A stretch of DNA of 64,000 bases from an uncultured Bacilli bacterium. Its GTDB lineage: Bacteria; Bacillota_I; Bacilli_A; RF39; UBA660. The stretch lies in NCBI GenBank assembly GCA_947628235.1, contig CANQZC010000004.1, positions 12,314 to 76,313 on the forward strand, given 5' to 3'. How positions within the stretch are numbered: the first letter of the stretch is position 1; every line of letters begins with the position of its first letter. Both the position numbers and the translations under genes were made by a program. The notes below the pieces were generated by a model, which worked only from the letters and a program-made list of their open reading frames with translations, ran no database searches and was not told where the DNA came from. Shown in pieces: positions 9,070-36,246 of the stretch.

Positions 9070-10395
9070 ATGGATAATATATTTGATCAGATGGACTTCG
9101 GTTCATTACAACAATATCTTGACAATGACGATGTAACCGATATTTCCTACAGTAATGGAGGACAATTATGGTTAAAGACATTATCTCATGGTATATTTAG
9201 AGTAGAAAATCCTTTAATCGATAACAATTTCATGGAAAAGTTAGCATTCCAATGTTCCAATGTTGTTGGTCATAGTTTCAACGCAGCTCACCCTTTCCTA
9301 GATAGTGAAAGCGCTGAGTTGCGTATGAACTTTATCCATGATTCTATCGCTCGAAATGGGATTGCATGTGTTATTCGTAAAACACCAGCAAAGATTCGTT
9401 TGGAACATGATAAAATTATTGAAGAAAAATATATTACAGAAGATATTCATGATTTATTAATTCGTTGTGTTCACGGTCATTGTAATATGATTGTATCTGG
9501 AGAAACTGGTTCAGGTAAAACTGAGTTTGTAAAATACTTAGCTTCTCACACATACGAAAATGAAAAATTGATAACGATAGAGGATACCCTCGAACTTCAC
9601 TTGGATAGAATTTATCCACACAGAGACATCGTTGCTATGAAAACAAATAATGTTGCTAGTTATACCGATGTACTTGTTTCTTGTATGAGACAGAACCCTA
9701 AATGGATATTACTTTCCGAGGTTCGTAGTGCAGAGGCAGTACTTGCTGCCAGAAACTCTATTTCTTCTGGTCACTATATTCTTTCTACTATCCATGCCGA
9801 TAGGGCAACATCTATCCCTAACCGTATGTATAGTTTGCTAGAAACAAACCAAGAAATTGATCAATTCTTAAGATCTATCTATCGATATATTCAAATTGGT
9901 ATTTATATCCGTGGATATCAAGATAGAGTATCTAAAAGATTTGTTCGTGAGATTGCGGAAGTTTGTGAATTTTATGTTACGGAAGAAAATGAAGCAAAAT
10001 ATAATATTTTATTTCAAAAAACTCCAGCAGGAAAAATTACAAAGCATCCGCCAAGCAAATATTTAGTTGCTTATTTGGAGGCTCAAGGAGTTATCCTTCC
10101 AGAAGGTTTTATGGCAGGAGAAGCTACCGACAATGGAGTTTCTGCCTCTGAGACACTAGAAAAGGAAGATCCTTTCGCAGAACCTGCAAATAGCGAAGAA
10201 GGAGAAGGAGGACAAGAAGTACAACCTACTTCAACAGTTCCTACTGCCCCTGTAAGTCAACCAATGAATCCTATGGCAAGTCAACCTCAACCCACGATGA
10301 CTGTGCCACAACAAGTGAGTCCAATGACTCAACCACAAATGATGGCTCAAATGCCACCACAGGCAAGTCCAACGACTGCTTTTCCAACACAATAA
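9070..10395 (+). CDS. CpaF/TadA-family (VirB11-like) secretion ATPase with a C-terminal P/Q/T/M-rich tail
   Basis: Walker A GETGSGKTE, the ILLSEVRSAEA Asp-box region and the TIHA His-box are present. The last 90 or so aa are low complexity. Confidence 0.8.
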   Translation: MDNIFDQMDFGSLQQYLDNDDVTDISYSNGGQLWLKTLSHGIFRVENPLIDNNFMEKLAFQCSNVVGHSFNAAHPFLDSESAELRMNFIHDSIARNGIACVIRKTPAKIRLEHDKIIEEKYITEDIHDLLIRCVHGHCNMIVSGETGSGKTEFVKYLASHTYENEKLITIEDTLELHLDRIYPHRDIVAMKTNNVASYTDVLVSCMRQNPKWILLSEVRSAEAVLAARNSISSGHYILSTIHADRATSIPNRMYSLLETNQEIDQFLRSIYRYIQIGIYIRGYQDRVSKRFVREIAEVCEFYVTEENEAKYNILFQKTPAGKITKHPPSKYLVAYLEAQGVILPEGFMAGEATDNGVSASETLEKEDPFAEPANSEEGEGGQEVQPTSTVPTAPVSQPMNPMASQPQPTMTVPQQVSPMTQPQMMAQMPPQASPTTAFPTQ

Positions 10396-12444: not shown

Positions 12445-12978
12445 ATGAGGGAAAGCATAGGGACTTCATTTATGTTAAATTTTATAGTTTTATTTATATT
12501 TTTAGTGTTTGCCTTCTTAGCTGGAACTTTTAGCTATTACAAGGCCTATAGAGTTAACAATTATATCGTTAACTCTCTTGAAATCTATGAAGGATATAAT
12601 GAATATTCAAAGGATCAAATGGATGTAGGACTAACTAGTATGGGATATGATATTACAACAAAGATAGATTGTCCAAGTACATGGGAAAACACGAGTCAAA
12701 GTTATTTGGCGCGTGAAAATGGAGAAATTGCTAAATTTAATGTAATAGGGCAAAGAGCTTTAGTGGATTTAAACCATCCAGACGAGGGATATTGCGTTTA
12801 TTTGTATTGGAATGATGATTCCACTCTTGCCGCAGACAATTCCTATGGATTGGAAACAACAGATGTTTACTATACTTATGGTGTCTTAACATACATGAAA
12901 TTTCGTTTTCCTGTCATTGAAAACATTTTGAGAATTCCTATATTTTCTAGAACCAATAGAATGTATTATTTTGGATAA
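12445..12978 (+). CDS. TadE/TadF-like pseudopilin candidate
   Basis: The MRESIG N-terminus plus a hydrophobic helix is paralogous to the ORFs at 7726 and 13000. Confidence 0.35.
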   Translation: MRESIGTSFMLNFIVLFIFLVFAFLAGTFSYYKAYRVNNYIVNSLEIYEGYNEYSKDQMDVGLTSMGYDITTKIDCPSTWENTSQSYLARENGEIAKFNVIGQRALVDLNHPDEGYCVYLYWNDDSTLAADNSYGLETTDVYYTYGVLTYMKFRFPVIENILRIPIFSRTNRMYYFG

Positions 12979-12999: not shown

Positions 13000-13473
13000 A
13001 TGCGTGAGGCAGTTGGAAATACTTTTATTGTAAATTTATTATTAGTCTTTTTAGGCGTTATGTCTGCTTTACTAATAGGATCTATTAGTTATTCTAAGGC
13101 GTTCAAAGTAAAAAATAGAATTATTTATATTATTGAAAAATATGGTGACTGGGATGTTACGGCAGGTGGAGAAAATTTGGTTCAAGCGGAAATAGAAGCT
13201 AACTTGAGAGATATTGGGTATCATTTAGCTTTAGCCAATAGAGAGTGTCCACCTAGAGACGGTGCTTTAACAAAATATGGTACCAATAGTACTACCACTA
13301 GTAGAACTACTTATCATTATTGCGTTTATGAGTATAACAATGAGAAAGGCCACTATTTTGGTGTGACATCATATATGCACTTTGATTTGCCTTTAATTGG
13401 AAATTATATTGAATTTCCTGTATATGGGGAGACTAAGTCATTGTATGATGTAGGTCAGCACTACAATAATTAA
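13000..13473 (+). CDS. TadE/TadF-like pseudopilin candidate
   Basis: The MREAVG N-terminus plus a hydrophobic helix. Confidence 0.35.
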   Translation: MREAVGNTFIVNLLLVFLGVMSALLIGSISYSKAFKVKNRIIYIIEKYGDWDVTAGGENLVQAEIEANLRDIGYHLALANRECPPRDGALTKYGTNSTTTSRTTYHYCVYEYNNEKGHYFGVTSYMHFDLPLIGNYIEFPVYGETKSLYDVGQHYNN

Positions 13474-17937: not shown

Positions 17938-20073
17938 ATGGAATATATAGTAAAGATTTTAAGAACATTATTTTTCCACATAGATCGTGTTGTTTATGAA
18001 GGAATTGGAAGTGTTTATGATTTGTTGTTAAGAATAGCTAGAACAACTATTCTTAGTGACGATATGATCGGTGATTTTAGTGAGAGAATTTATGCCCTTA
18101 TTGGGATTTTTATGCTATTTAAGATTAGCATATCTCTCATTACATATGTTTTAAACCCGGACGAGTTTGTTGACAAGGAAAAAGGATTCTCTTCTATCAT
18201 AAAAAGAGTCGTTATTTCCCTCTTTTGCTTAGCTCTTGTTCCATACGGCTTTAAAGAACTATTTAGTTTGCAAACCATTTTATTAGAGGACAATACTTTG
18301 GCAGCTATATTTTTCGGCGATATTGATGATAGCGCCTATAAAATTGATACTGCGGGAGATAAAATAAAATTTATTTTGATGTATACATTCTTTCAACCAA
18401 ACTATCAGGGACTCTATGAAAATGAAGGTAATACTAAACTAGCAAGTTGCGCAATTACTTATGAATTTGAAGAAGTCTCTGGCTCTAGTCAGGGTAGAGT
18501 CAAGAAAAATGACGATGGCGCTTTTATGCTAAATCAAGAATGTTTCGGAACTTATAATGCAGATAGTCATGAATATGTACCATCAACTCCAGATACAAGT
18601 GCGCTTAATAGTGATTCTGATTATGGATCATATTGGGATGATAAAGATCTTTACCAAACTTATGCACAGGGTGTTGCTAGACAGAATTTTTACTTAATGT
18701 TTAGACACAATATAGCAATGGCTGAAAGAGGGAAAGATAAAGGTCTATATCTAGTAGATTATATGGCACCACTTAGTACAGCCGTTGGAGTAGCTGTTCT
18801 TTGGGTTTTAATTTTATTCTGTATTGATGTTGCTGTTCGTAGCGTAAAATTATCATTCTATCAGTTAATCGCGCCAATTCCAATCTTATCTTATGTAGAT
18901 CCTAAGAGTAAAGATGGAATGTTTACTAAATGGCTAAAACAAGTTGGAACAACTTTCTTAAGTCTATTTATGAGGTTAATTGCTTTATATTTAGCAATAT
19001 ACTTAATCTCTGAAGTTTCTGAATCAGGAATCAGAGATGTTATAACAGGAGAAAGAGTAACTGACTGGTGGGTACAAATCTTTGTTATCATCGGTGTGTT
19101 AATGTTTGCAAAACAATTACCAAAGATTCTTGAAGATACTTTAGGAATTAAGGGGACTGGTGATTTTACATTAAATCCATTAAAGAAGCTAGAATCTATT
19201 CCAGGTGGAAAAATGTTATCTGCTCCAGTTAAAGCAGTCGGAAATCTAGGAAAAGGTATTGCACGTGGAGCAACCTTAGGTGTTGGAGCAGCAGCTGGTG
19301 TAGGAATTGCAGGATTAGTAACTGGTCAAGGACTTCGTGGCGGCGCTATGGGAAAAGCTTTATTAGGTGCTGCTAGAGGAGAAAAATTTGGTAAAAACTT
19401 TGCAACTTCTTATGGAGCTGGACGAGCTAGAAAGAAAGAATTGGATCAGATGAAAGCAGATGGTGTTAGTGCAAGCCAAGTTAGAGGCGAGAAATTTTAT
19501 AATGCTTTCCATGGTGAAACCAAAGCAGAACATGTACAACATGCAGTAGATACAGCAAAAGCAATTCAAAGTAGATATGAATCTTATGAAAAAACAGCAG
19601 TAGGTGTCGATTCTTATGCAAAATACGCAGATAAACAAGCTAAGGCAGCTGCGGCTAGAGGTGATTTTGAATGGCAAAGAACTTGGGAGGACATTCGTGA
19701 TGACAGAATAAAAGAAATTCATACGAAAAATGGTGAAATTTCTACTTCTAAAAATGTAAGTGATTCATCATTCTTTGTAACGGATGCACATGGAACCGTT
19801 GATTATAGTCGTAGACTTGACAAAACTGGTGTAGAAGAAGGAACAACTCAGGTAAATGCAGCCTTGGCAAACTTAGCACATAGCATGACGCAACTTGCAA
19901 CTCAGTTCAACGAACAATATTCAACAGTGGCTGGATATTCTAAAATTGATGGAACTAAGGATCCAAAGGGTATGAAAAATGAGGCTCTTGGTGCTCAACA
20001 ATCTATTGAAACTAACTCTGCAAATACAACTATAAACGATGTTGCAAAATATACTGGCGGTTCTAAAAAATAA
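17938..20073 (+). CDS. VirB6/ConG/TcpH-like polytopic membrane protein with a Gly/Ala-rich hydrophilic C-terminal region
   Basis: It is 711 aa with 5 or more TM segments spread over the first 400 aa. It lies upstream of VirB3-like and VirB4 genes. Confidence 0.45.
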   Translation: MEYIVKILRTLFFHIDRVVYEGIGSVYDLLLRIARTTILSDDMIGDFSERIYALIGIFMLFKISISLITYVLNPDEFVDKEKGFSSIIKRVVISLFCLALVPYGFKELFSLQTILLEDNTLAAIFFGDIDDSAYKIDTAGDKIKFILMYTFFQPNYQGLYENEGNTKLASCAITYEFEEVSGSSQGRVKKNDDGAFMLNQECFGTYNADSHEYVPSTPDTSALNSDSDYGSYWDDKDLYQTYAQGVARQNFYLMFRHNIAMAERGKDKGLYLVDYMAPLSTAVGVAVLWVLILFCIDVAVRSVKLSFYQLIAPIPILSYVDPKSKDGMFTKWLKQVGTTFLSLFMRLIALYLAIYLISEVSESGIRDVITGERVTDWWVQIFVIIGVLMFAKQLPKILEDTLGIKGTGDFTLNPLKKLESIPGGKMLSAPVKAVGNLGKGIARGATLGVGAAAGVGIAGLVTGQGLRGGAMGKALLGAARGEKFGKNFATSYGAGRARKKELDQMKADGVSASQVRGEKFYNAFHGETKAEHVQHAVDTAKAIQSRYESYEKTAVGVDSYAKYADKQAKAAAARGDFEWQRTWEDIRDDRIKEIHTKNGEISTSKNVSDSSFFVTDAHGTVDYSRRLDKTGVEEGTTQVNAALANLAHSMTQLATQFNEQYSTVAGYSKIDGTKDPKGMKNEALGAQQSIETNSANTTINDVAKYTGGSKK

Positions 20074-20093: not shown

Positions 20094-20426
20094 ATGGGAC
20101 AATATTTAATACCGGCTAACTCGAAAAAATCCATGCTAATATTAGGTGTATTTAATCAACTTGACTTATGGATATTTCTAGTTGGATTACTCATTTCGTT
20201 AGTATTACTATTAATACTTCCAGTGGACCAATTGCCGTATGCAATTACGGCAATTGCCCCTGGTGCATTTTGTGCATTCTTGGTAATGCCAATACCAAAC
20301 TATCACAATGTGCGTACTTTTTTTAGAGTAGCATTTGTATTTTATACAACTAGACAACATTTTGTATGGAAAGGATGGTGCTTTAATAGTGGCGAAGACG
20401 GCGAGAAGCAAGTATACAGAAGCTGA
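20094..20426 (+). CDS. VirB3/PrgI-like small two-TM protein
   Basis: It is 110 aa with two hydrophobic helices and sits immediately upstream of VirB4. Confidence 0.4.
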   Translation: MGQYLIPANSKKSMLILGVFNQLDLWIFLVGLLISLVLLLILPVDQLPYAITAIAPGAFCAFLVMPIPNYHNVRTFFRVAFVFYTTRQHFVWKGWCFNSGEDGEKQVYRS

Positions 20427-20934
20427 TGTTCCTGTAAAAAGCATTACGAATGGTACTATTTTACTAGATAATGGTCAAAAGGTTACTGGTGTTAAAATTA
20501 TGCCTAGAAATATCTTTATCTTGGAACCAGCAACGCAGAATGCCATTATTACTAACTTAAAAACAGTATTCAATGTTATCGATTTTGAATTCTGGATTAT
20601 TGTTGCTGATAGACCAGTAGATATTAATGTATATCTTTCTCAATTGCAATTACTATATAACACAACCACTGATCCTGCCCGTAGAAAGATTATTAACGAA
20701 GATATCAATAAAGCAAATATGTTTGCTGCTAATAATGTAGTTGATACAGAATACTTCTTAGTTTTTAAAGAGAAAGATAATGAACTTATCAATAAGAGAA
20801 TTAGAAACTTAATTGGAAACTTTGCAAATGCTGGATTAACGGCATTCCAAACAACCAATGACGATTTAAGAATGATTTTAGACAACTTCTTAAATGGTGG
20901 TATGACAACAGAATTTGGGACGGTGTTATCATGA
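20335..20934 (+). CDS. VirB4 N-terminal-domain-like protein encoded as a separate ORF; start uncertain (the ATG at 20335 overlaps the previous gene; a GTG at 20389 follows AAGGATGG)
   Basis: Its 199 aa plus the next ORF's 595 aa add up to a typical VirB4 length, with Walker A about 440 aa from the combined start. Its stop overlaps the next start in ATGA. Confidence 0.4.
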   Translation: MYFIQLDNILYGKDGALIVAKTARSKYTEADVPVKSITNGTILLDNGQKVTGVKIMPRNIFILEPATQNAIITNLKTVFNVIDFEFWIIVADRPVDINVYLSQLQLLYNTTTDPARRKIINEDINKANMFAANNVVDTEYFLVFKEKDNELINKRIRNLIGNFANAGLTAFQTTNDDLRMILDNFLNGGMTTEFGTVLS

Positions 20935-22718
20935 TGGATGTTAGAAGCCAAATTGCTCCTAAAGGCTTGGAGTTTAAACCTGCTTCTTTTGTAATAAGTG
21001 ATAAATATGCAACCATCTTAACGGTTATTGGATATCCTAAATATATTTATCCTGGATATTTATCATCTTTAACATCTATGTCAGGTATCAAATTAGTTAT
21101 TAAAAATATCCCACTTCCTTTTAGCTCTATTCAAAAAATGTTAAACAAGGAAATTGCGGATTTAAAACAAAGATATCAAGATGAACATGATAGAACGATT
21201 CAAGAGCGTATTAGACAAGACTACGACTCTTTGGAACAATTCGTTTCTGAGTTAGCTGCTAGTCAAGCAAAAATCTATGATTTTCAAATGCATATTATGA
21301 TTACAGCCAATTCTGAAGATGAATTAACGGTAAAAAAATTACAAGTAAGAAATTATTTGGAAGCAATGGAGATGAGAGCAATCCCACTTCGCTTCGAACA
21401 AGAAAAAGTATTAAAATCTATGTTAGCAATCTATCCTAAACAGGATATTGAAGATAGAATTGGAACTCCAATTCCAGCGCCAACGATTGCTGCTATGTAT
21501 CCATTTATTTTTGATAGTATTAAGGACCCAGGACTTTCTACTTTATTAGGGGTAGACTTTTCTGGTGGAGTTATTTTGTTTAATCAATTCTTATATCAAA
21601 TTAAGAAGGAGCACAATCGAAATAACGCTAATATGATTATCCTTGGTACTTCTGGTAGTGGTAAATCTACTGCTGCTAAACTATTACTTAGATCACATCT
21701 TCGTAATAACAATCAAATTGTTGTTATTGACCCTGAAGGGGAACTTGAAGATATGTGTAAACTCTATAGTGGAGACTTTATCAGTTTAGGTAAAGGTGGA
21801 GATTTCGGTATGATTAATCCCCTTGAAGTAGTTATGGATGCTGATGAAGAAGAGATTAAGCAAGGACTAGGATACACAACTTTAACGAGAACTTTACAAT
21901 CTGTAAAAGCATTCTTGAAGTATTATGATCCAACAACAGAAGAAGATGTTACCAATATGTTTAGTGAGATTCTTCAGGAAACTTATCGAAGATTTAACAT
22001 TAACTTTGAGACAGACTTTACAAAGTTGACATCTGAAGATTATCCAACTTTAAAAGATGTTTACGCAACGATTAAAGGAAAAATCTTATCTATGCCAGAA
22101 AGAACACAAGAAAGAGATGTTTTGGAAAGACTAGAGTTAAAGATTCGTCCACTTATCAAGGAATTAAGATATTACTTTGATGGACATACAACAATTCATT
22201 CTAATAGTGATTTCATTGTATTTAACATTAAGGAGTTAATGAATTCTGATACAAATATTAGAAATGCATTATTCTTCAATGTTCTTAAGTTTGCATGGAG
22301 TTTAACTCTAGATGCTTCTCATAATACGGTATTAATGGTTGATGAGGCACATGTATTGTTAAGTAATCAAAATGCCTTAGGTGCGGATTTCTTAGCGCAA
22401 ATTCAAAGACGTGCTAGAAAATATAACACAGGAACCATTATTATTACACAACAACCAACCGATTTCTGTGATCCAGCCGTATTTGTTCAAGGAAAAGCAA
22501 TTTTTGATAACGCTTCTTATTATTTAGCAATGGGATTAAAGAAGCAAGCAGCTGAAGATTTAGCTCGTTTAATTGATTTAAATGAAAGTGAAATTGACAG
22601 TATTAAGAGATATGGTCAAGGAGAAGCATTATTCATATGCGGTTCAAGACGCATGAGAATTAATATTGTTGTAACAGATGAAGAATTAGAGTCTTTCGGT
22701 AAAGGCGGAGGACTATAA
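20931..22718 (+). CDS. VirB4-family type IV secretion ATPase (ATPase domain portion)
   Basis: Walker A ILGTSGSGKSTAAKLL; Walker B region VLMVDEAH; a C-terminal region typical of VirB4, PrgJ, TcpF and TraE. Confidence 0.8.
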   Translation: MMDVRSQIAPKGLEFKPASFVISDKYATILTVIGYPKYIYPGYLSSLTSMSGIKLVIKNIPLPFSSIQKMLNKEIADLKQRYQDEHDRTIQERIRQDYDSLEQFVSELAASQAKIYDFQMHIMITANSEDELTVKKLQVRNYLEAMEMRAIPLRFEQEKVLKSMLAIYPKQDIEDRIGTPIPAPTIAAMYPFIFDSIKDPGLSTLLGVDFSGGVILFNQFLYQIKKEHNRNNANMIILGTSGSGKSTAAKLLLRSHLRNNNQIVVIDPEGELEDMCKLYSGDFISLGKGGDFGMINPLEVVMDADEEEIKQGLGYTTLTRTLQSVKAFLKYYDPTTEEDVTNMFSEILQETYRRFNINFETDFTKLTSEDYPTLKDVYATIKGKILSMPERTQERDVLERLELKIRPLIKELRYYFDGHTTIHSNSDFIVFNIKELMNSDTNIRNALFFNVLKFAWSLTLDASHNTVLMVDEAHVLLSNQNALGADFLAQIQRRARKYNTGTIIITQQPTDFCDPAVFVQGKAIFDNASYYLAMGLKKQAAEDLARLIDLNESEIDSIKRYGQGEALFICGSRRMRINIVVTDEELESFGKGGGL

Positions 22719-22741: not shown

Positions 22742-24763
22742 ATGAATAATAAGCCAAATAACGGTGGCGGTGGAACCCCATCGTTATCACCTTCTGTGAA
22801 GGAAAGAGATTTAGAGAGTCAAGGGAAAAATTTGATGGAGGGAAAAGCTCGTGCTGTTACTCCTCCTCCTATTCCTAAAAGTAATCCAAGTAGTTCCAAT
22901 GCATCTTTACCTAAGCAGGGTGGAATTCCTAGTCAAGAAAGGGTAGGTTCTAAGGAAGGTATTGGCAGTCAAGGAGGACTGCCACCCAGAGAAAGCATTA
23001 ATAGTGGTGCTGGAACTCCAGCTGCACATAATGGACAAGGTGGGGGAGTTGCTGCAGGTGGAAAATCTAATCCACAAGCTCAGGCTTTAAAAAATAGAGT
23101 GGCTTCTGCTGCTCTTCAGGCGGCAGGAGTACCTAAGGCTGTTAGTGATATGGCTGTCAATTCAAAACTTGGTAAAAAAGCTATGACGGCGATGCAAGAC
23201 CCTGCTAAAGCGGCTCTTAATGGTGTAAAAAATGTAGGAAAAAGTGAAGCTGAAAAGGATGCTGCTGAAAAAGAAGAGGAAGAAAAAGAAAAGGAAAAAA
23301 CAACAGGCGGAGTTACTTTGAGGGTACCTCTTTCCGTAAAACTTACTATTTTCTTAGGAATTTTACCTTCTTTTTGCTTTATTATCATTTTTATGATGAT
23401 TATTGTTTCTTATGTAGCCGATGAAAAAGCATTTAATATTTTCATGGGTAAAATTGTAGGAGATAAAGATGCTAGCGATATATATGATTTCAAAGAAGAA
23501 ATGGGTATGGGTGGTACTCTAGACGATATTGGTATGGGTACTGGTGGAATTACTTTTGATGAATTCTTAAATAGATATCAAAATTTAGGAAATATTTATG
23601 AATATTTTGATTGTGAATCTAAAGAAGAATGCTTAGAGAGAGACGAAGTAAAATTTTATATCAAAGTCAATGATATTATGCTTCGTTACTATCATAAATA
23701 TAATGGTATTAATTTAGACTGGGAGTTGTTAATGTCAACCGTATTAAGTCTAGACATTGATGTGAAAGAAATGTTTAAAGAACTATGGCATTCTTATAAC
23801 TATGATGATGTTGAAAATTATGAAATCTTAATGGATTTAGATTGGGATTATGATTATAAAAAAATTCCTGGGTATGATTATTTAAGCCCTAGCGATTATC
23901 GCTATGATTTACAGATACTCGCGAAAAATATGGTTACGAAAACGACTACTCAGACTTGTACAAAATTAGTAAGAAATGAAGATGGTTCTACTTCTACCGT
24001 AGTAACGAAAACAAGAACAGATACAGATATCGAAGATATGTATCTTCAACCAGGACAACCATATTATTTAAAATGCGATGCTGGAGAAACTTATCATATT
24101 TCTAGTAATTACCGGTTAGATATGGATAAATATGATGAATTTTTATCTGAATACTTAGAGAAAAAATTATATTTGCCTGAAACGGCAGATGATAGTTATA
24201 TTCCAGATGAAAATGGTCAAATCACAATTGATCATGTAACAGGAGATAGTTTATCTGCTAAAATGGTTAATTTAGCCCTTGCTCAACAAGGAATAGAGGG
24301 TAGTTATGAACACAACGGTGATAATAATGTCATTTATAATACTTGGTATTATGGAAGAGAAGTTAGTGGATCAGCTTATCCTTGGTGTGCAGCTTTCGTA
24401 TCTTGGGTAGTAGCGCATACCGAACATGATGGTACTCAGTTATTAAGTATTTTAAATCATAAATCTGCATCTGTGCAGAATTGGGCCAGTTATTTTCAAA
24501 ATACTTCTACATTACAGCTTAAAAATTCTTCCTATTTAGGAGGTAATTACACACCAAAACAAGGAGATATGATTTTCTTCTCTTGGAAAGGTGATAATGG
24601 TTGTAGTAATACTGGAATCAGCACCATGGATCATATTGGTATTGTCGTTGAAGTACAAGGAAATAATGTTATTACTATCGAAGGAAATACTGCCAATAAG
24701 GTAGCAACCAGAACTTATGCGTTAGATAGTTGTGAAATTACAGCCTATGGGGTTTGGTACTAA
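22742..24763 (+). CDS. Membrane-anchored peptidoglycan hydrolase with a C-terminal CHAP domain (functional analog of VirB1, TcpG and CwlT)
   Basis: A 190 aa G/P/S/A-rich N-terminal region is followed by one TM. The C-terminus has the CHAP Cys (YPWCAAFVSW) and His (DHIGIVVEV) motifs. Confidence 0.65.
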   Translation: MNNKPNNGGGGTPSLSPSVKERDLESQGKNLMEGKARAVTPPPIPKSNPSSSNASLPKQGGIPSQERVGSKEGIGSQGGLPPRESINSGAGTPAAHNGQGGGVAAGGKSNPQAQALKNRVASAALQAAGVPKAVSDMAVNSKLGKKAMTAMQDPAKAALNGVKNVGKSEAEKDAAEKEEEEKEKEKTTGGVTLRVPLSVKLTIFLGILPSFCFIIIFMMIIVSYVADEKAFNIFMGKIVGDKDASDIYDFKEEMGMGGTLDDIGMGTGGITFDEFLNRYQNLGNIYEYFDCESKEECLERDEVKFYIKVNDIMLRYYHKYNGINLDWELLMSTVLSLDIDVKEMFKELWHSYNYDDVENYEILMDLDWDYDYKKIPGYDYLSPSDYRYDLQILAKNMVTKTTTQTCTKLVRNEDGSTSTVVTKTRTDTDIEDMYLQPGQPYYLKCDAGETYHISSNYRLDMDKYDEFLSEYLEKKLYLPETADDSYIPDENGQITIDHVTGDSLSAKMVNLALAQQGIEGSYEHNGDNNVIYNTWYYGREVSGSAYPWCAAFVSWVVAHTEHDGTQLLSILNHKSASVQNWASYFQNTSTLQLKNSSYLGGNYTPKQGDMIFFSWKGDNGCSNTGISTMDHIGIVVEVQGNNVITIEGNTANKVATRTYALDSCEITAYGVWY

Positions 24764-24766
24764 GAG

Positions 24767-25456
24767 GTGCTTATGAAAAAAATAATTGGACTATTTGTAT
24801 TAACCCTTTTTATTAGTGGGTGTAGTAGTGAATATAATGTAAAAATTACTTCTGATAAGATAGAGGAAAATATCAACATTGTTGTGGATAAAAGTTTAAT
24901 AGGAGAAGATGCGGGAAATCCAAATGACCCTGTCAATCCAACAGAATCAGACGATCAAATTACCCCATTTATCAAAGGAGATCAATATCCATTTTCTAAT
25001 AATACTTCTCAAAAATATGAAAAAGTGGTTACTGAAGATAAAGATAATTATTATATTCAATTAAATTATTCTTTTCTTCCATCTCAATATGGAAACTCAA
25101 CTGCACTTTCTAGTTGCTTTGAAAAACATGAATTTGTAGAAAATGAGAAGTATTATGAAATCAAATTGGGAGGAGCTTTTTACTGTTTATATTCTGATGC
25201 TTTAACCATTAATTTAAATACTCCAAATATTGTTAAAGAAAACAATGCAGAACAAGTGAATGGCGATACCTACACTTGGACAATCAATAATCAAAATGTT
25301 CGAAATACAGATATTTCTATTAAAATTATGAAGACAACCAAATGGCAACAATATCTTATTTATGGAATTATGATTGGTGTTATAGTAATTGTTGTGATTG
25401 GTGCTCTTGTTTTAGCGAATATATTTGCGAATAAAGAATCTCGTAATAAAATCTAG
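24767..25456 (+). CDS. Lipoprotein with a C-terminal TM anchor
   Basis: Lipobox FISGCSS; a C-terminal hydrophobic helix followed by KESRNKI. Confidence 0.5.
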   Translation: MLMKKIIGLFVLTLFISGCSSEYNVKITSDKIEENINIVVDKSLIGEDAGNPNDPVNPTESDDQITPFIKGDQYPFSNNTSQKYEKVVTEDKDNYYIQLNYSFLPSQYGNSTALSSCFEKHEFVENEKYYEIKLGGAFYCLYSDALTINLNTPNIVKENNAEQVNGDTYTWTINNQNVRNTDISIKIMKTTKWQQYLIYGIMIGVIVIVVIGALVLANIFANKESRNKI

Positions 25457-25466
25457 GAGGTGCTAT

Positions 25467-26855
25467 ATGAAAAAGAGAATGAAAAAAATTTTTATAGCCA
25501 ATTTAGTGATATGTCTTTGTCTATTTCATATAGCAAATGTTTTTTCCTATGAATACATAGATTCAAAGAATAAAACACCAGTGGAGCAAAAGAAAAAAGA
25601 AATTTATCAAATGCAGCAGATGTATCAGTTCCTTTTAGGGGAAGACGAGTCTAACTACATTATGAATTATAGTGGAGCATGTAGTACGGTTACTGTCGAA
25701 GGTAGTGGTACATATACACTAGATCAGTATATTGCTGGAGTTGTTAAGGCGGAGGTAGGATCTGAATCTGATAAGCCAGAACTTTTAAAAGCACAGGCAA
25801 TTGCCGCTAGATCTTTTGTTATTGCTAGTATGGGAGAAGATACTTTGACCTGTACCGTTCCTAATGGTCAAAGTTTCCAAGCATTCTCTGAAGTAAGTGA
25901 TGGAAACTCAGCAGATGCTCCTTACATTAAAGCCGCTCAAGAAACTTCTGGAATGGTTATTATGAAAGATGGAAAAGTAGCGCTTACGCAATACTTATCT
26001 TATCCAAATAGTAAATTCTGTTATGAAGTGGATGGAAAGTGGCATATTAATTTTCAAAAATTTGGAAGTGATTCAAGCACTGCTTGGGAATGGGTTGGAC
26101 CTTCTAAAGCAGAAGTATTAGCTGCTAATAACTGGGCTCCTCAGTCAGGAGCACCTTCTACTACTCACCATTTTGGAATGAGTCAAATTGTAGCTGGATG
26201 GATGGCAGCAAATGGCAAAACATATCAAGAAATTCTAGAGACTTTCTATGGGGAAAGTATTGGTATGTTAAGCGACGGTAATTACACTGGAGAATTAGAG
26301 TTTGTAGATTCTGATTTCGGTCAAATTACTTATTGGAACCAAGGAGATTTTGGTAATTATTACTATTCTTCTGATGTATCTACTCCTCAGTATAAAGGTT
26401 CTAGTGGAAAGTGGGCAACAATTGCTAGTCACGGTTGTGGTCCATCTTCTATGGCTATTATTTTATCTAGTTTTACGGGACAACAAATCTCTCCAATTAC
26501 GACGACACAACAAGTGTGTAAATTAGGAGGATGTACAAGTGGCGGTAGTACTTATGGTTCTCTTGCCCAACTTGCTAAACAATATGGATACAAAGCAGAA
26601 TTTGTTGGCAAAGATGGTAATCTTTCTAAGGTAACCAATGCCCTTGCTAGTGGAAATTCTTTAGTAGTAGCGCTTATGGGACCTGGAGTATTTACGAGTG
26701 GTGGTCACTATATTGTTCTTACAGGAACAAGATCTGATGGAATGGTATCTGTTGCTGATCCTGCAAGTAGAAAAAGAACACAACAAAAATGGTTTTCATT
26801 TAATTTAGTTGTTTCACAAGCAAAAGGTAGCGGATTCTTAATTGTTACTAAATAG
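25467..26855 (+). CDS. Secreted bifunctional cell-wall hydrolase: a SpoIID/LytB-like domain plus a C39-like cysteine peptidase domain
   Basis: The ATG at 25467 follows a TAGGAGGTG RBS. The SpoIID-type motif LLKAQAIAARSFVI is present. The C-terminus has GCGPSSMAIIL ... GGHYIVLTG, a Cys and His pair. Confidence 0.55.
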   Translation: MKKRMKKIFIANLVICLCLFHIANVFSYEYIDSKNKTPVEQKKKEIYQMQQMYQFLLGEDESNYIMNYSGACSTVTVEGSGTYTLDQYIAGVVKAEVGSESDKPELLKAQAIAARSFVIASMGEDTLTCTVPNGQSFQAFSEVSDGNSADAPYIKAAQETSGMVIMKDGKVALTQYLSYPNSKFCYEVDGKWHINFQKFGSDSSTAWEWVGPSKAEVLAANNWAPQSGAPSTTHHFGMSQIVAGWMAANGKTYQEILETFYGESIGMLSDGNYTGELEFVDSDFGQITYWNQGDFGNYYYSSDVSTPQYKGSSGKWATIASHGCGPSSMAIILSSFTGQQISPITTTQQVCKLGGCTSGGSTYGSLAQLAKQYGYKAEFVGKDGNLSKVTNALASGNSLVVALMGPGVFTSGGHYIVLTGTRSDGMVSVADPASRKRTQQKWFSFNLVVSQAKGSGFLIVTK

Positions 26856-27575: not shown

Positions 27576-29783
27576 TTGAAATTAAAATTTCGTGCTGAGA
27601 CAAAGGATGTAGTTATCTTTTGCATCTTTTCTGCAGTTCTTTTCTTTCTTATTTGCTTAGCTGTATCGAATGTAGGAATTTTTATTGCGGAAAATGAATT
27701 TGTTGGTTTCAATATCATTCCTGCTTTAACAAGATATTTACCATTTACCTTGATGCTTTTTATTATTTCTATTATAGCTATGTTCTTAAGTGTTCAGTCT
27801 TGGTTTATTGAAAGAGAAGAAGGTATTGGTATTCAAATTGGTGCCAAAAAGGAAAAAAATTATTCTAGATGGGCCAAAGATAAAGAAATTCAAAATGGAC
27901 TAGATGTAGTAGCCGTTGATCCTCTAGCGCCTAAGACTGATGCTGCTGGTATACCATTAATTATGACACCTAAAAAAGTTTGGGTAGATAATGGTGGATA
28001 TCACAACCTAGTTATCGGTTCTACTGGTGCTGGTAAAACACAGACTACTGTACTTCCTATGGTAAATTTACTTGCAAAACATGATGAGTCTATGATTATT
28101 ACAGACCCTAAAGGTGAAATTTATGAATTAACTTCTAACTATTTAAAAAGTTTAGGATACAATATCGTTCTTTTGAACTTCCGTGATCCTCAGCAAGGAA
28201 ATAGTTGGAATCCAATGTATTTACCATATTCTTTATATAAACAGCATAAAATTGATAAATCTATCGAGTTATTGGAAGACTTAGCAGCCAATATCTTAAA
28301 GGACCCTTCTGCGAAGGGACAAGACCCATTCTGGGAAAATACATCAGCAGATTACTTTTCAGGATTGTCTTTTGCGCTTTTTGAAGATGGTGATGAGTCT
28401 CAAATTAACTTAAATAGTATTAACTTAATGACGACAGTAGGAGAAGAGAAACTAGCTAATACTACCTATATTAAAGAGTATTTTAGTTTTAAAGATCCTG
28501 CTAGTACAGCTTATATTAAAGCATCATCAACATTGATGGCACCAAATGAAACAAAAGGATCTATCCTTTCTGTATTTAAACAGAGAGTTCAATTATTCGC
28601 ATCTCGTACCAATTTATCTGAGATGCTTGCCAATAATGACTTTGATATGCGAGATATTGGTCGAAAAAAGACGGCTGTATTTATCGTTATTCAAGATGAA
28701 AAAACAACTTATCATACATTAGTTACGATTTTCTTGAAGCAATGCTATGAAACACTTATTTCTGTAGCGCAAGAAAGTGGAGGAAAACTTCCTCATAGAA
28801 CTAATTTTATTCTAGATGAGTTTGCTAACATGCCACCATTAAAAGATGTTACTACGATGGTTACAGCGGCTCGTTCTAGAAATATTCGTTTTACGTTTAT
28901 TATCCAGAACTTCTCTCAATTATATGAAGTATATGGAAAAGAAAATGGTGAAACAATTAAAGGTAACTGTGGTAACATCGTTTACTTAATTAGTACAGAG
29001 TTAAGTGCTTTGGAAGAGATTAGTAAAATGTGTGGAGAAGTAAAATCAAAAGAAAAAGAAAAGACTTCCTCTACGCCACTGGTTACTGTCAGTGATTTAC
29101 AAAGAATGGAACAATGGCAAACAATTATCCTTCGTATTCGAACGATGCCATTTAAGACTAAATTAACTCCTAACTTTAAGATGGATTGGGGACATAATTT
29201 CCCTAAAGCAGATTATCCACAAAGAGAGGAAATTCCTGTTCAAATCTTTGATTTAAAGGGATTTGTAGAGAAGAAAAGAGAAGAGAAAATTAATAATTTA
29301 TTAGGAAATTCCGGAACTCCTGGAGGAGGAGTTCCAACTCCAATTCCAACTCCTGGAATGCCAACTTCTCAGTTCCCACCTACGCCATTTGGAGCAGGAA
29401 CACCAAGCAACCCTTTCTCTTCTAGACCATTCCCACCAAAGGCTGGCATGACGAATGCTGCGGAAAAGAAACCTGCTGGTGGAGGAATTAATGTAGAAGA
29501 CTTAGTTAAGAGAATAGATGCGAAAATTGCTGAATTAGAAGAAGAAGAAAAGAGAGAAAAAGAGGCACAAGGTGGTGGAATTCCAAATCCAGAGATACCA
29601 AATCCAGAGATACCAAATCCAGAGATACCAAATCCGGAAATTTCAACACCTATGGAAACACAGCCACAAATGCCTGTTTCTTCTCCTGTCACGCCAACTA
29701 GAGAGCCAGAAAAACCTAAAGAGACAACTGCTCCAAAAGTTAGCGATGATGAATTCTTTGATGATTTCTTTGGAGATGATTAA
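27576..29783 (+). CDS. VirD4/TraG/TcpA-like type IV coupling protein with a Pro-rich repetitive C-terminal tail
   Basis: Two N-terminal TMs; Walker A LVIGSTGAGKTQT; Walker B region ILDEFANMP. The start is a TTG, 5 nt after TAGGTGA. Confidence 0.75.
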   Translation: MKLKFRAETKDVVIFCIFSAVLFFLICLAVSNVGIFIAENEFVGFNIIPALTRYLPFTLMLFIISIIAMFLSVQSWFIEREEGIGIQIGAKKEKNYSRWAKDKEIQNGLDVVAVDPLAPKTDAAGIPLIMTPKKVWVDNGGYHNLVIGSTGAGKTQTTVLPMVNLLAKHDESMIITDPKGEIYELTSNYLKSLGYNIVLLNFRDPQQGNSWNPMYLPYSLYKQHKIDKSIELLEDLAANILKDPSAKGQDPFWENTSADYFSGLSFALFEDGDESQINLNSINLMTTVGEEKLANTTYIKEYFSFKDPASTAYIKASSTLMAPNETKGSILSVFKQRVQLFASRTNLSEMLANNDFDMRDIGRKKTAVFIVIQDEKTTYHTLVTIFLKQCYETLISVAQESGGKLPHRTNFILDEFANMPPLKDVTTMVTAARSRNIRFTFIIQNFSQLYEVYGKENGETIKGNCGNIVYLISTELSALEEISKMCGEVKSKEKEKTSSTPLVTVSDLQRMEQWQTIILRIRTMPFKTKLTPNFKMDWGHNFPKADYPQREEIPVQIFDLKGFVEKKREEKINNLLGNSGTPGGGVPTPIPTPGMPTSQFPPTPFGAGTPSNPFSSRPFPPKAGMTNAAEKKPAGGGINVEDLVKRIDAKIAELEEEEKREKEAQGGGIPNPEIPNPEIPNPEIPNPEISTPMETQPQMPVSSPVTPTREPEKPKETTAPKVSDDEFFDDFFGDD
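29583..29642 (+). repeat. Four tandem 15-bp repeats, CCAAATCCAGAGATA, encoding (IPNPE)x4
   Basis: Three copies are identical and one has diverged. They lie in frame inside the VirD4-like tail. Confidence 0.8.
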
Positions 29784-29867: not shown

Positions 29868-31007
29868 ATGCAATTTCATATGGATTCTGATAATTTCAAA
29901 AATGCTAAAATGAAAGTAGTAACAGGAAGTGAATCTTCCTCCCTATCAAACAATACTCTTTCTAATGTATCAACGACTGAAGTTTATGAAGAGTATGAGG
30001 AAGAAGAAAAACCTAAAGGATTTTTTTCTGGTTTGGTTTATGAACATTTTGGCGAAGAAATAGAAGAGGCAATTCAAATGATTCAAGAATTAGCGCCTCA
30101 AATTGGATTAAACACGGATCATTTAACAGATCAATTAATTTATGATCACATTATCTTTTTCGGTTCTTTAGCGCTTCAACTAAAAGGATTGGATGTCGAA
30201 AATCCAGACGAAGAGAAATTAGCGATTATTCTTTTTGATTTCCTTGCAAATTCAGGTATTTCTTATGAAGAACTAGAAGCAAATTTTACGAATATTACAG
30301 AAGTCATTCAAGAATATTTATCTCCTTTAGCAGAAAAAACTGGTTTAGAGATGAACTTAGATAGAGATCATATTAAAAATCTTTATGATGCATTTTCTAA
30401 GAAGGAAGAGAAGAGGGGAGAAGCAGTTACAGAAGCTATTTTAGATATTTGTCCTGACTTAGCAGATAGCATTTCTGCCAAACTTAGAGAAAATAATATT
30501 TATGTAACTTCTGACTTAATAAAAAAATCTTTACCACCAATTTTTAAAGATGCTTCCTCTTCTATTACTGAAATTAAAAATATTATAGGATTATTTCAAG
30601 GAAATATTTTAGATATGTTGAAAGCGATAGGAAAACTAACTGACTTTTTAGACCTAGGAATAACAGATGTTGGGGTTACGATAGGTGGAACCTTGATGCT
30701 TTTTGGAGGAGATTTACTAGACGATACTTGGACGAGTATACAAGCATGGGGAAATAAAACCATAAATGATGTTAAAAATTTTGGTGCAGAAGTTTTAGAC
30801 TGGGGCGAGCAAGCTATTCAGGATGTTAAAGAATGGGGAGAACAGGCTATTCAAGATGTCAAAGACTGGGGCGAGCAAGCCATTGAAGATGTTAAGGATT
30901 GGGGAGAGCAGACTATAGAAGATGTCACAGTTTGGGGAGTGGAAGCTTGGGAAGATGTAGAAGACTTTTTTTCTGATGCCGGAGACTTTCTTTGCTTTTG
31001 GAATTAA
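29868..31007 (+). CDS. Acidic protein with a C-terminal 11-aa tandem repeat (WGEQAIQDVKD-like) x5; unknown function
   Basis: The ORF is preceded by TGTGATATAAT. Repeat units at 30821..30985 differ at synonymous positions. Confidence 0.45.
   Translation: MQFHMDSDNFKNAKMKVVTGSESSSLSNNTLSNVSTTEVYEEYEEEEKPKGFFSGLVYEHFGEEIEEAIQMIQELAPQIGLNTDHLTDQLIYDHIIFFGSLALQLKGLDVENPDEEKLAIILFDFLANSGISYEELEANFTNITEVIQEYLSPLAEKTGLEMNLDRDHIKNLYDAFSKKEEKRGEAVTEAILDICPDLADSISAKLRENNIYVTSDLIKKSLPPIFKDASSSITEIKNIIGLFQGNILDMLKAIGKLTDFLDLGITDVGVTIGGTLMLFGGDLLDDTWTSIQAWGNKTINDVKNFGAEVLDWGEQAIQDVKEWGEQAIQDVKDWGEQAIEDVKDWGEQTIEDVTVWGVEAWEDVEDFFSDAGDFLCFWN
30821..30985 (+). repeat. Five tandem 33-bp in-frame repeats
   Basis: TGGGGCGAGCAAGCTATTCAGGATGTTAAAGAA recurs with silent substitutions. 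The last unit is degenerate. Confidence 0.7.
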
Positions 31008-31308: not shown

Positions 31309-32391
31309 ATGGAATATATTATTATTGGACTACTATGTGTCATTCTCATTCTTTTAGTCATTTTACTGGTGAGACCAAATCATGATGATTCAACCTTGGA
31401 ACGAATTAGTAAAATGGAAACAGAAATGATTAAGGAAATTGGAGATTTTAAAACGGATTTTACTAGAGATATTAGAGATGATTTTGAAAAGACTAACGAT
31501 AGAATCGATCATCGTTTACAATTAATTAGTGAAAGAGTAAATGAACGATTAGATGAAAACTTTGAAAAGACCAATAAAACATTTACTTCTGTGTTAGAGA
31601 GACTTTCTAAAATTGATGAAGCACAAAAGAAAATTGATAATTTATCTACAGATATTGTTTCTCTTCAAGGAATATTAACAGATAAGAAAACAAGAGGAAT
31701 TTTTGGAGAAGTAAATCTAGAACATATTATGAGTAATGTATTTGGCGCTAATAATACGAAGATTTTTGAGATGCAACATTCTTTTGAAAATGGAACGATT
31801 GCCGATTGCGTTTTATTTGCGCCAGAACCATTAGGAGTAATCGCTATTGATTCCAAATTCCCATTAGAAAATTACCAAGCAATGGTAAATAAAAAAAATA
31901 GTACTGATGTGAGAGCAAATGCTGAAAAATTGTTTAAATCAGATATGAAGAAGCATATTGATGCCATTAGTAGTAAGTATATTATTCCAGGAGTAACGAG
32001 TGATCAAGCTATTTTATTTTTACCAGCAGAGGCTATCTTTGCAGAAGTAAATGCTTACCACACAGAATTGTTAGAATACGCTTACAAGAAAAGGGTATGG
32101 ATTACTTCTCCTACAACATTAATTAGTACTTTAACAACGATTCAAATCATTATGAAAAATATCGAAAGAGATAAGTATGCACAAGTGATTCATAAAGAAT
32201 TACAATTATTAGATAGTGAGTTTTCCAGATATCGGGAAAGATGGGATAAACTTTATCGTAGTATTGAAACTGTTAGTAAGGATGTTAAAGATATTCATAC
32301 CACAACGGATAAAATTACCAAAAGATTTAATAGTATTAATCAAGTAGAAATGGGGAAAACGATAGATGAAGAAAATACTCTCGATTCTTAA
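31309..32391 (+). CDS. rmuC: DNA recombination protein RmuC
   Basis: An N-terminal TM and coiled-coil-like segments are followed by a conserved C-terminal RmuC-type region (ADCVLFAPEPLGVIAIDSKFPLENYQ). Confidence 0.65.
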   Translation: MEYIIIGLLCVILILLVILLVRPNHDDSTLERISKMETEMIKEIGDFKTDFTRDIRDDFEKTNDRIDHRLQLISERVNERLDENFEKTNKTFTSVLERLSKIDEAQKKIDNLSTDIVSLQGILTDKKTRGIFGEVNLEHIMSNVFGANNTKIFEMQHSFENGTIADCVLFAPEPLGVIAIDSKFPLENYQAMVNKKNSTDVRANAEKLFKSDMKKHIDAISSKYIIPGVTSDQAILFLPAEAIFAEVNAYHTELLEYAYKKRVWITSPTTLISTLTTIQIIMKNIERDKYAQVIHKELQLLDSEFSRYRERWDKLYRSIETVSKDVKDIHTTTDKITKRFNSINQVEMGKTIDEENTLDS

Positions 32392-32974
32392 TTATATAAT
32401 GATTGGAATTGCTTTTTTTGGTAGTTTTTATTATGTAATAACAAGGGATAGAGAGATTGGTTTAATTTTAAAAGATGCTTCTATTCTATTTACGATAACC
32501 GCTCCTTATTGGATAGAAAAATTATTTCATAAAAAGATTTCAATCGTTATCAAGTTTGTTTGTGTATTATTTGTTTTTAGCGCACATTTCTTAGGAACAG
32601 CAGTAGAGCTTTATAACCATATTTCATATTTTGATAAAGTTATTCATACCATTTCTGGAGCATTAACAGCACTATTTGCGATGCTTCTTTTAAATGTTAT
32701 GGGGATGTATCATAAGAAGAATCTTTTCTTTAATATTCTATTTATGCTTTCCTTGACTCTTTTAGTAGCTGGTGGTTGGGAAATGTTTGAGTATGTAGCA
32801 AATATCTTTTTTGGTGGAGATGCCCAAAGAGTAGCTTTAACGGGAGTAAATGATACCATGCAGGATATTATTGTTGCAACTTTAGGTTCTATTGTGATTT
32901 GTATTTGTTATGTTTTAGAGGAGAAGAAAGATAGAGATTGGTTAGTAAAAGGATTTATGAATGGAATAAAATAG
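32366..32974 (+). CDS. Polytopic small membrane protein (YjdF/DUF2238-like?)
   Basis: Four or five TM helices. The family assignment is weak. Confidence 0.3.
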   Translation: MKKILSILNYIMIGIAFFGSFYYVITRDREIGLILKDASILFTITAPYWIEKLFHKKISIVIKFVCVLFVFSAHFLGTAVELYNHISYFDKVIHTISGALTALFAMLLLNVMGMYHKKNLFFNILFMLSLTLLVAGGWEMFEYVANIFFGGDAQRVALTGVNDTMQDIIVATLGSIVICICYVLEEKKDRDWLVKGFMNGIK

Positions 32975-33033
32975 TGGAAATTTAATTCTTATTTTGCTAT
33001 AATAAAGTTGTAATAATACACGAGGAGGAAAGT

Positions 33034-33540
33034 ATGGAAATAATTAAGGAAAATAAGAAGATGATTATTTTTTTAGTAGTAATCCTTATATTGATTATAG
33101 GAATACTAGTGCTTAGTTTATTTGAAAAATCTGATAGTAGTAATTTGATGGTAAATTGTAGTAGAACTGTTCATTCAAAAACATCAGAAATTACACAGAG
33201 TATAGAAATATATGATTATATTTCTTATAAAACGATGATTCTAAAAATTGTTGTAGGAATAGATCAAGATGTAAATCAGAATATGTTAGAAAATTATCTA
33301 GCGATTATTGAATTTCAAACAAAACAAAAAATACAGTCAGCGGCTGGCGGAGAAATTCCTAAAGATGTGGTAGTTAGTTCAAAAATTGAAGGAAACAAGG
33401 CTATTATTTCTATTGAAAACAAACTTACCGAAGAGAATGCGGTAGAGATGTACCAATTATATGATACGAATTTTTATGAGATGACAAAAGAAGAGATGAA
33501 AAATTATTTTATTGAGGATGGTTTAACATGCGAAAGTTAG
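33034..33540 (+). CDS. Membrane-anchored hypothetical protein
   Basis: An N-terminal TM is followed by a hydrophilic domain. A TGcTATAAT extended -10 lies at 32995..33003. Confidence 0.4.
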   Translation: MEIIKENKKMIIFLVVILILIIGILVLSLFEKSDSSNLMVNCSRTVHSKTSEITQSIEIYDYISYKTMILKIVVGIDQDVNQNMLENYLAIIEFQTKQKIQSAAGGEIPKDVVVSSKIEGNKAIISIENKLTEENAVEMYQLYDTNFYEMTKEEMKNYFIEDGLTCES

Positions 33541-34823: not shown

Positions 34824-34848
34824 ATAGACATCTCTATCTATTTTTTTT
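34820..34848 (+). terminator. Rho-independent terminator: TAGATAGA, loop CATC, TCTATCTA, T8
   Basis: A perfect 8-bp stem that includes the P6 stop codon, followed by a T-run. Confidence 0.6.
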
Positions 34849-34878
34849 AAATATGATATAATTATGTTAGGTGATGTT

Positions 34879-36189: not shown

Positions 36190-36214
36190 ATAGGAAACCC
36201 TATCTATTTTTTTC
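36186..36214 (+). terminator. Rho-independent terminator: ATAGATAGG, loop, CCTATCTAT, T-run
   Basis: A perfect 9-bp stem followed by TTTTTTTC. Confidence 0.6.
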
Positions 36215-36246
36215 TGTTTTATAGTATAATAGAATTGGTGAATAGT

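Follow-up and report, generated by a model that had tools for sequence, protein, structure and literature searches.

Genes and signals of the locus

We analyzed a 64,000-nucleotide stretch of DNA from an uncultured Bacilli bacterium (GenBank assembly GCA_947628235.1, contig CANQZC010000004.1, positions 12,314 to 76,313), hereafter called the window, in which positions 20094 to 22718 carry three consecutive genes of a type IV secretion system (T4SS). A gene for a PrgI/VirB3-like protein is followed by two open reading frames (ORFs), ORF1 and ORF2, whose products together correspond to one VirB4 ATPase. We consider it very probable that this arrangement represents an evolutionarily fixed, functional fission of the virB4 gene in a Gram-positive-type (MPF-FATA-like) T4SS.

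All three genes are encoded on the forward strand. The first (20094..20426) specifies a small PrgI/VirB3-like membrane protein of 110 aa, assigned from the ORF call, from two hydrophobic segments in the hydropathy profile and from a weak match to PF26592 (PrgI_like) recorded for the equivalent 107-aa gene in related loci. It is presumed to serve as the membrane anchor of VirB4. The second gene, ORF1 (20389..20934), encodes a TrsD-like protein of 181 aa when read from the GTG at 20389; its open frame reaches back to a TTG at 20335, and the longest frame from this first possible start (20335..20934) comprises 199 aa. ORF2 (20931..22718) encodes a short-form VirB4 ATPase of 595 aa, composed of residues 1-200 and a RecA-like ATPase domain spanning residues ~201-595. 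The Walker A motif GTSGSGKS occupies ORF2 residues 239-246 (21645..21668), and a Walker B-like motif VLMVDE at residues 467-472 (22329..22346) aligns with VLVVDEA of the structure 4AG5.

ORF2 matched the Pfam domains AAA_10, P-loop_TraG and DUF87. A Pfam scan of ORF1, the PrgI-like ORF and the close ORF1 homologs P0001 and P0012 returned no family even at E 10, and weak precomputed matches to PF26593 (TraC-like) are recorded for homologs that are 89-94% identical to ORF1. The maximal Kyte-Doolittle mean over 19 residues was 2.93 for the PrgI-like ORF, 1.21 for ORF1 and 1.18 for ORF2, so that by this measure no hydrophobic segment is present in either half of the split pair. An exact-sequence look-up found no record identical to ORF2, and a blastn search with 20094..22718 against plasmid and phage collections gave zero matches.

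ORF1 and ORF2 share the tetranucleotide ATGA at 20931..20934, where the ATG that opens the ATPase gene and the TGA that closes the TrsD-like gene overlap, and ORF2 therefore lies in the -1 frame relative to ORF1. Five nucleotides before this ATG, within the last codons of ORF1 that encode part of a conserved FGTV, the sequence GACGGTG (20919..20925) likely acts as a Shine-Dalgarno-like element for the ATPase gene. The hexamer ACGGTG directly precedes the junction in nearly all related loci, regardless of the type of junction. A preliminary description of the window, made from its sequence, had given the coordinates of the two ORFs, the ATGA junction, the lack of transmembrane segments and a Walker A motif about 240 aa into the ATPase, and all of these were confirmed here.

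The same description had placed an ATG at position 20335 as a possible start of ORF1. The codon at this position is a TTG, followed by a further TTG at 20362 and the GTG at 20389. An ORF1 beginning at 20335 would overlap the VirB3-like gene by 92 nt, as had been calculated correctly, and comparison with relatives makes the GTG at 20389, previously named as the alternative, the start. The methionine column of the protein alignment coincides with this GTG. Of 78 related loci, 66 have ATG and 12 have GTG as the start codon nearest before a conserved S[KR]YT motif, at a distance of 2-8 codons from the motif (5-8 codons in 75 of the loci), and in almost all of them a conserved TGGAARGGWTGGTG block lies 8-9 nt upstream of that start. 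The start was set at 20389 because the methionine column, the nearest start codons and the block at its fixed distance agree. In the window the block reads TGGAAAGGATGGTG (20367..20380, forward strand), stands 8 nt before the GTG within the 3' end of the PrgI-like gene and is likely the ribosome-binding region of the TrsD-like gene. Translation from 20389 yields the 181-aa protein and an overlap of 38 nt with the PrgI-like gene, compared to 11-53 nt between the PrgI-like and TrsD-like genes in relatives. Positions 20367-20426 are dual-coding, with the TGGAARGGWTGGTG block encoding the W-K-G-W-C end of the PrgI-like protein. The seeming conservation upstream of 20389 arises because the C-terminus of the PrgI-like protein overlaps there in another frame.

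Collinearity with single-chain VirB4 proteins

To place the two products on a complete VirB4, they were compared with the NCBIfam model NF045975, which describes the VirB4 of Mycoplasma integrative and conjugative elements (ICEs) over 894 positions. ORF1 covers positions 101-276 (E 7e-15) and ORF2 positions 296-893 (E 1e-103), meaning that the two ORFs follow each other on the model collinearly, without overlap and without an absent block. The full-length cut-off was reached for no NCBIfam VirB4 model (347.5 bits vs 590). The PrgI-like ORF was considered as a source of the first 100 model positions and rejected, as it showed zero match. Searched exhaustively, a set of 1.8 billion representative proteins yielded the single-chain VirB4 proteins P0245 (800 aa) and P0255 (839 aa), the N-termini of which both match ORF1. 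In BLASTP alignments, ORF1 residues 14-175 pair with residues 18-183 of P0245 (E 4e-19), and ORF2 residues 8-594 with its residues 226-799 (E 7e-73); ORF2 is likewise collinear with P0255. Since the two alignments flank residues 184-225 of P0245, the break falls into a linker of ~40 residues. Aligned to full-length VirB4, ORF1 is hence homologous to the first ~180 residues, with ORF2 collinear with the remainder, which supports the earlier proposal that a VirB4 is split into two ORFs here.

Structural comparisons agree with this assignment. Residues 201-593 of ORF2 align to the crystallized ATPase domain at the C-terminus of Thermoanaerobacter VirB4 (PDB 4AG5; E 1.4e-58). A profile of ORF1 homologs run against PDB sequences gave chance-level matches only, for which reason a fold search was used instead. 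We modeled ORF1 with AlphaFold2 and searched the model with Foldseek; its top 14 PDB matches were all chains of R388 TrwK/VirB4, at probabilities of 0.90-1.00 (1.00 in 11 of the 14) and with query TM-scores of up to ~0.47.

In the R388 system the N-terminal domain of VirB4, residues 15-400, has VirB3 wrapped around it and brings about the dimerization of VirB4 (PMC9259494). With these limits and an ATPase domain that begins at about ORF2 residue 201, the break cuts the ~400-aa N-terminal domain near its midpoint. The ~380 residues that precede the ATPase domain are divided about equally, ORF1 contributing the first subdomain and ORF2 residues 1-200, which cover positions 296 to about 500 of NF045975, the second. 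The preliminary view that the VirB3-binding N-domain is encoded separately from the ATPase consequently holds for its first half, but not for its second half, which remains on the ATPase chain. Judged as a VirB4, ORF2 possesses a RecA-like ATPase domain with Walker A and Walker B motifs that is homologous to solved structures, and the locus provides the T4SS neighbors, namely a VirB3-like protein, VirB6, a cell-wall hydrolase and VirD4. The N-terminal domain of ~400 aa does not reside on the same polypeptide; it is present, but divided.

This complementarity bears on a reading in which the 181-aa protein is a diverged accessory subunit, derived from the VirB4 N-terminus but endowed with a role or stoichiometry of its own. 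Such a subunit might, for example, bind to some VirB4 copies and not to others, or it might link the VirB3-like protein to a truncated VirB4 as an adaptor for assembly or regulation. The age of the split, described below, would suit this idea, as would the existence of separate families for the small protein (PF26593 TraC-like, NF041427 TrsD). Furthermore, the two VirB4 subunits of each R388 dimer differ in their N-domain contacts (PMC9259494), which makes an asymmetric use conceivable. However, ORF1 and ORF2 are exactly complementary to a single-chain VirB4, with no segment duplicated or absent, and the tight overlap of the genes suggests equimolar synthesis; nothing at this locus points to another stoichiometry. 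We therefore regard the accessory-subunit reading as unlikely, even if it is the most credible of the alternatives to gene fission.

Conservation of the two-gene arrangement

A search with ORF1 returned 7879 significant homologs, and the best 120 of them (68-94% identical) are all 179-207 aa long. ORF1 relatives are encoded at at least 454 places in a collection holding one genome per species; the best 80 of these stem mostly from uncultured gut 'Bacilli', Mollicutes/Mycoplasmatota, Acholeplasma sp. CAG:878 and metagenome-assembled genomes of Erysipelotrichaceae. Independent assemblies with an ORF1 of 89% identity contain, in this order, a 107-aa PrgI-like gene, a 182-aa gene, a 595-aa ATPase, a CHAP hydrolase, a 221-aa gene and a SpoIID/C39-like gene, and in these assemblies, too, the small gene and the ATPase gene overlap by 4 nt.

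Across 77 related loci, an ILDNFLNG motif is followed by 19 further residues (in a few cases 21-22) before the small gene stops, and wherever the locus extends far enough an ORF2 of 594-597 aa begins at the end of ORF1. No fused ORF1-ORF2 was present among these 77 loci, and the disruption that the preliminary description had held possible was not borne out. In the loci examined, the PrgI/VirB3-like gene always precedes the pair, whose two members are always adjacent. The recurrence of this two-gene order in all related loci examined goes far beyond chance. Both genes are under purifying selection, with pairwise Nei-Gojobori dN/dS ratios of about 0.14 for ORF1 and about 0.10 for ORF2, values that are approximate because synonymous sites are near saturation. 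The split is thus natural and ancient, and the two genes have been held separate over long evolutionary time.

Two further observations concern the set of relatives. The protein P0138 (L094:71-772) was considered as a fused close relative. It comprises 233 aa, is 41% identical to ORF1, and its N-terminal subdomain continues in frame through a linker of ~25 residues into an ORF2-like start (TILSVIGYPNKVYPGYLSGL). It was rejected as too weak to count because the 3' end of its single metagenomic contig, which measures 891 nt, looks chimeric. Several loci with an ORF1 of 70-88% identity (L009, L018, L022, L029, L045, L047 and others) sit in bins labelled Muribaculaceae, Roseburia, Bacteroidaceae or Actinomycetes. 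These are most likely mis-binned contigs of low-GC Bacilli, with horizontal transfer as the alternative.

While the position of the break is constant, the junction itself varies. The 77 loci show ATGA, TAATG, TAAATG, TAATATG or TAGTATG at this point, besides overlaps of 10-11 nt and a TAA followed by a 13-nt spacer that contains GGAGG; in L057 and L068 the junction lacks an ATG and ORF2 apparently starts at a GTG. This variety is informative for the possibility that programmed -1 frameshifting or another form of recoding at the ATGA produces a single full-length VirB4. The -1 position of ORF2 in the window would be compatible with recoding, and the commonest junctions, ATGA and TAATG, share that relation. 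However, the frame relation is not fixed: ORF2 is in frame 0 behind a TAA in L073 and in the +1 frame in L035, L053, L072, L085, L036 and L041, and the 13-nt spacer of L036 resembles a ribosome-binding site. Neither was a slippery heptamer of the form X XXY YYZ found at GGGACGGTGTTATCATGATGG. ORF2 always begins with an ATG or GTG of its own, and the plasmid homologs described below keep 3-20 nt between the two genes. A relative frame of -1, 0 or +1 depending on the lineage, together with the missing heptamer, excludes a conserved programmed frameshift, and recoding in any form appears highly improbable.

The idea that a frameshift or an assembly or sequencing indel broke a single virB4 of ~780 aa in this particular genome is the least credible of all, even though the two ORFs lie in different frames, have the joint length of a normal VirB4, and include an exact ORF2 protein without a record elsewhere: the identical break recurs in 77 of 77 related loci from independent assemblies and species, with varied junctions and frames and none of them fused, which excludes a one-off indel; each ORF has its own conserved start codon with an upstream purine-rich or GGTG element; and strong purifying selection acts on both, where a pseudogene would show relaxed selection and an unshared disruption, with thousands of stand-alone homologs of ~180-200 aa existing besides. 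Of the three options left by the preliminary description, i.e., a natural split, a frameshift pseudogene or a sequencing error, the 77 loci, the dN/dS ratios and the homolog lengths thus select the first. A read-through of TGA under genetic code 4 was also rejected, given that the frames differ, most relatives stop with TAA, and long ORFs are intact under table 11.

TrsD-type relatives, proposed working and genomic setting

The nearest named counterpart of ORF1 is TrsD, which has been described as remotely homologous to the VirB4 N-terminus (PMC12102498). Plasmids of the pGO1/pSK41 type in S. aureus carry, in the order trsC-trsD-trsE, a gene for a membrane protein, trsD (227 aa, 'TrsD/TraD family') and a gene for a 670-aa DUF87 ATPase. 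In pIP501-type plasmids, the genes traC-traD-traE correspondingly encode proteins of 127 aa, 209 aa and 653 aa (TrsE/TraE). Both types, which we take to represent the 'pGO1' subclass of MPF-FATA, share with the window the order of a VirB3-like protein with two transmembrane segments, a soluble protein of ~180-230 aa, a VirB4 of ~600-670 aa and a CHAP/lysozyme hydrolase. A pMRC01-like plasmid of Lactococcus likewise has the three-gene layout, with trsD annotated in the middle. These systems differ from the window in that their ORF2 counterparts TrsE/TraE are only ~24% identical to ORF2, in that pGO1- and pIP501-type genes are 10-20 nt apart where the window genes overlap, and in the host, which is an uncultured low-GC gut Bacilli/Mollicutes-like lineage here. 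A broadened ORF1 profile aligned with S. aureus TrsD over 155 columns (hhalign probability 94%, E 1.3e-7), whereas its match to the pIP501-type TraD (E 0.086) was not significant alone.

The closest characterized replicons are of the pBMB67 type, found in B. thuringiensis and the B. cereus group. Here a PrgI family gene precedes a 227-aa hypothetical protein (WP_000051766; L087:4914-5597) and a 630-aa DUF87 protein, and the order TrbL/VirB6-like, PrgI-like, small protein and ATPase is shared with the window. ORF2 is ~30% identical over its whole length to the pBMB67-type VirB4 of the Bacillus plasmid NZ_CP097259.1 (E 2e-78), and the 227-aa protein matched the ORF1 profile with an hhalign probability of 97.7% (E 2e-12). 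This protein bridges the families, since it matches the TrsD model NF041427 (E 3e-10), positions 3-136 of the VirB4 model TIGR00929, and NF045975. Differences to the window are the plasmid location, the adjoining relaxase and coupling protein, a gap of 3 nt between the genes, and the longer small protein.

A comparable set of genes occurs on the Bacillus subtilis plasmid pLS20, where genes 50, 51 and 52 encode a 103-aa protein with two transmembrane segments, a 192-aa protein and a putative VirB4 of 631-633 aa. Gene 51 is listed as 'unknown' (PMC8557374). In pLS20 as in the window, an extended VirB6 of the p028 family precedes these genes, the VirB6-like protein of the window matching the pLS20_p028 model, and the operon also contains a TadA/VirB11-like ATPase. 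The alignment of the pLS20 protein p52 with ORF2 begins at residue 12 and runs to the end (E 3e-32), with 22% identity. For p51 (L089:22518-23096), direct similarity to the ORF1 profile was marginal and unconvincing alone (E 0.18 with a shallow profile; E 0.009 and a probability of 4.5% with a broader one), and its link to VirB4 accordingly comes from a match to NF045975 positions 91-276 (E 5e-6). The neighbor of a short VirB4 on a C. perfringens plasmid was also considered as TrsD-like and rejected, being a genuine RNase H. In the single-chain VirB4 proteins, namely R388 TrwK, Thermoanaerobacter pseudethanolicus VirB4, the Mycoplasma ICE family of Mbov_0397, and P0245 and P0255, all domains are collinear with those of the window on one polypeptide of ~800-900 aa, whereas the window chain is interrupted within the N-terminal domain.

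With respect to the curated TrsD model NF041427 (cut-off 200 bits), S. aureus TrsD scores 227, pIP501-type TraD 107 and the pBMB67 227-aa protein 40 bits. The 181-aa ORF1 does not reach this cut-off, and with both NF041427 and Pfam unmatched its link to TrsD is drawn from profile-profile comparison and from the pBMB67 protein as an intermediate. By position, size, solubility and remote homology to the VirB4 N-terminus, ORF1 is of the TrsD type. For these reasons we call it TrsD-like, i.e., a distant relative that shares superfamily and position, rather than a member of NF041427. The locus is thus a populous, metagenome-dominated case of the known architecture of TrsD/TraD with a short VirB4 (TrsE/TraE). 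A search of the literature on a split VirB4, or on VirB4 in RF39, found none.

Functional data come from the plasmid pUC11B, where conjugation requires trs11, a gene that is located between the gene for a protein with two transmembrane segments and the VirB4 gene and whose loss can be complemented in trans (PMC10221548). By analogy with the trsD annotated at the equivalent position of the pMRC01-like plasmid, we infer that trs11 is a TrsD homolog, and in this sense it is the strongest functional parallel now available for a small subunit encoded on its own. The pIP501-type tra region of pEC369 (L091:2410-5411) contains a 209-aa TraD, which matches the TrsD family with E 1e-30, between traC and traE. 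According to a recent review (PMC12857230), traC lies 'immediately adjacent' to traE, and current pIP501-type models seem to pass over the TrsD-type gene between them.

Several points weigh against a fixed fission of virB4 with TrsD-like ORF1. NF041427 left the 181-aa ORF1 unmatched even at E 10, and Pfam was silent on it as well. Its structure model is of moderate quality only (pLDDT 65, pTM 0.57), with the Foldseek TM-scores at ~0.47. Synonymous differences are near saturation (pS ~0.6). ORF2 is 31% and 28% identical to the single-chain proteins P0255 and P0245, respectively, as against 30% to the nearest split VirB4, that of the pBMB67 type. Being about equally near to fused and split forms, it allows both a shared ancestry with TrsD/TrsE and an independent split. 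Finally, the contacts between ORF1 and ORF2 and with the PrgI-like protein are predicted ones.

Since the genes for the PrgI/VirB3-like protein, the TrsD-like protein and VirB4 either overlap or directly adjoin one another, co-transcription and translational coupling of the three are probable. A ribosome terminating at the TGA (20932-20934) could re-initiate at the ATG at 20931; alternatively, the GGTG-containing element just upstream may recruit a ribosome to ORF2. Such coupling would lead to roughly equimolar amounts of both products, and the two polypeptides may then associate non-covalently to form a complete VirB4 N-terminal domain. The rebuilt domain would dock on the VirB3-like protein with its two transmembrane segments at the membrane and mediate oligomerization of VirB4, while the ATPase domain would power assembly of the machine and transfer of substrate.

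The T4SS genes of the window form a cluster of ~29 kb (1900-31000) between housekeeping genes (518..1797 and 31309..38385), with ScpB/ScpA upstream and RmuC and RNase R downstream. Besides the three genes described, the cluster encodes a TrbL_4/VirB6-like protein (17938..20073), a CHAP-domain hydrolase (22742..24763), a SpoIID and Peptidase_C39-like protein (25425..26855) and a VirD4 coupling protein of the T4SS-DNA_transf family (27576..29783). The N-terminal ~200 aa of the CHAP hydrolase are rich in Gly, Ser, Pro and Ala and of low complexity, and its pairing with a second cell-wall enzyme, the SpoIID/Peptidase_C39-like protein, is unusual in a T4SS cluster. A Tad-like module is present as well, consisting of a weak RcpC/CpaB-like match (8166..9026) and a T2SSE/TadA/VirB11-like ATPase (9070..10395). 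Three large ORFs (1939..3540, 4327..7719 and 29868..31007) gave zero family matches. The scanned ORFs of at least 150 aa yielded neither a relaxase nor an integrase with Pfam or NCBIfam, the two small ones at 12445..12978 and 13000..13473 being scanned with Pfam only.

The cluster may be chromosomal and non-conjugative. As a more speculative proposal, which we regard as rather doubtful, the ~29-kb T4SS and Tad-like machine could be inherited vertically and be used for instance in DNA uptake, contact-dependent exchange or a host- or partner-dependent lifestyle, with the detached subdomain permitting a regulated or asymmetric assembly of the VirB4 motor. Part of this proposal is the observation that the order of the core T4SS genes is repeated across hundreds of species of uncultured gut Bacilli/Mollicutes-like bacteria with reduced genomes. 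In Patescibacteria, TrsD homologs adjoin virB4, together with PrgI/VirB3 and VirB6, in reduced genomes (PMC12102498). These hosts belong to another phylum than that of the window, the likeness being the stand-alone TrsD-type protein. If true, a non-conjugative apparatus would parallel the TrsD-containing T4SS of Patescibacteria.

The divided VirB4 described here does not constitute a new kind of system, as both the TrsD/TrsE arrangement and the remote homology of TrsD with VirB4 have already been published; it is useful for annotation and unsurprising to a T4SS specialist. A 'hypothetical' protein of ~180-200 aa encoded between a VirB3-like gene and a short virB4 is to be read as part of the VirB4 motor, rather than as an unknown or broken gene, a point that covers thousands of metagenomic proteins. 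The pLS20 gene 51 product ('unknown') and the 227-aa protein of pBMB67 ('hypothetical') could likewise become 'TrsD-like / VirB4 N-terminal subdomain'. For the VirB4 family as a whole, the bisected N-domain marks a tolerated break between two subdomains, which could be used to dissect the docking of VirB4 on VirB3 and its dimerization.

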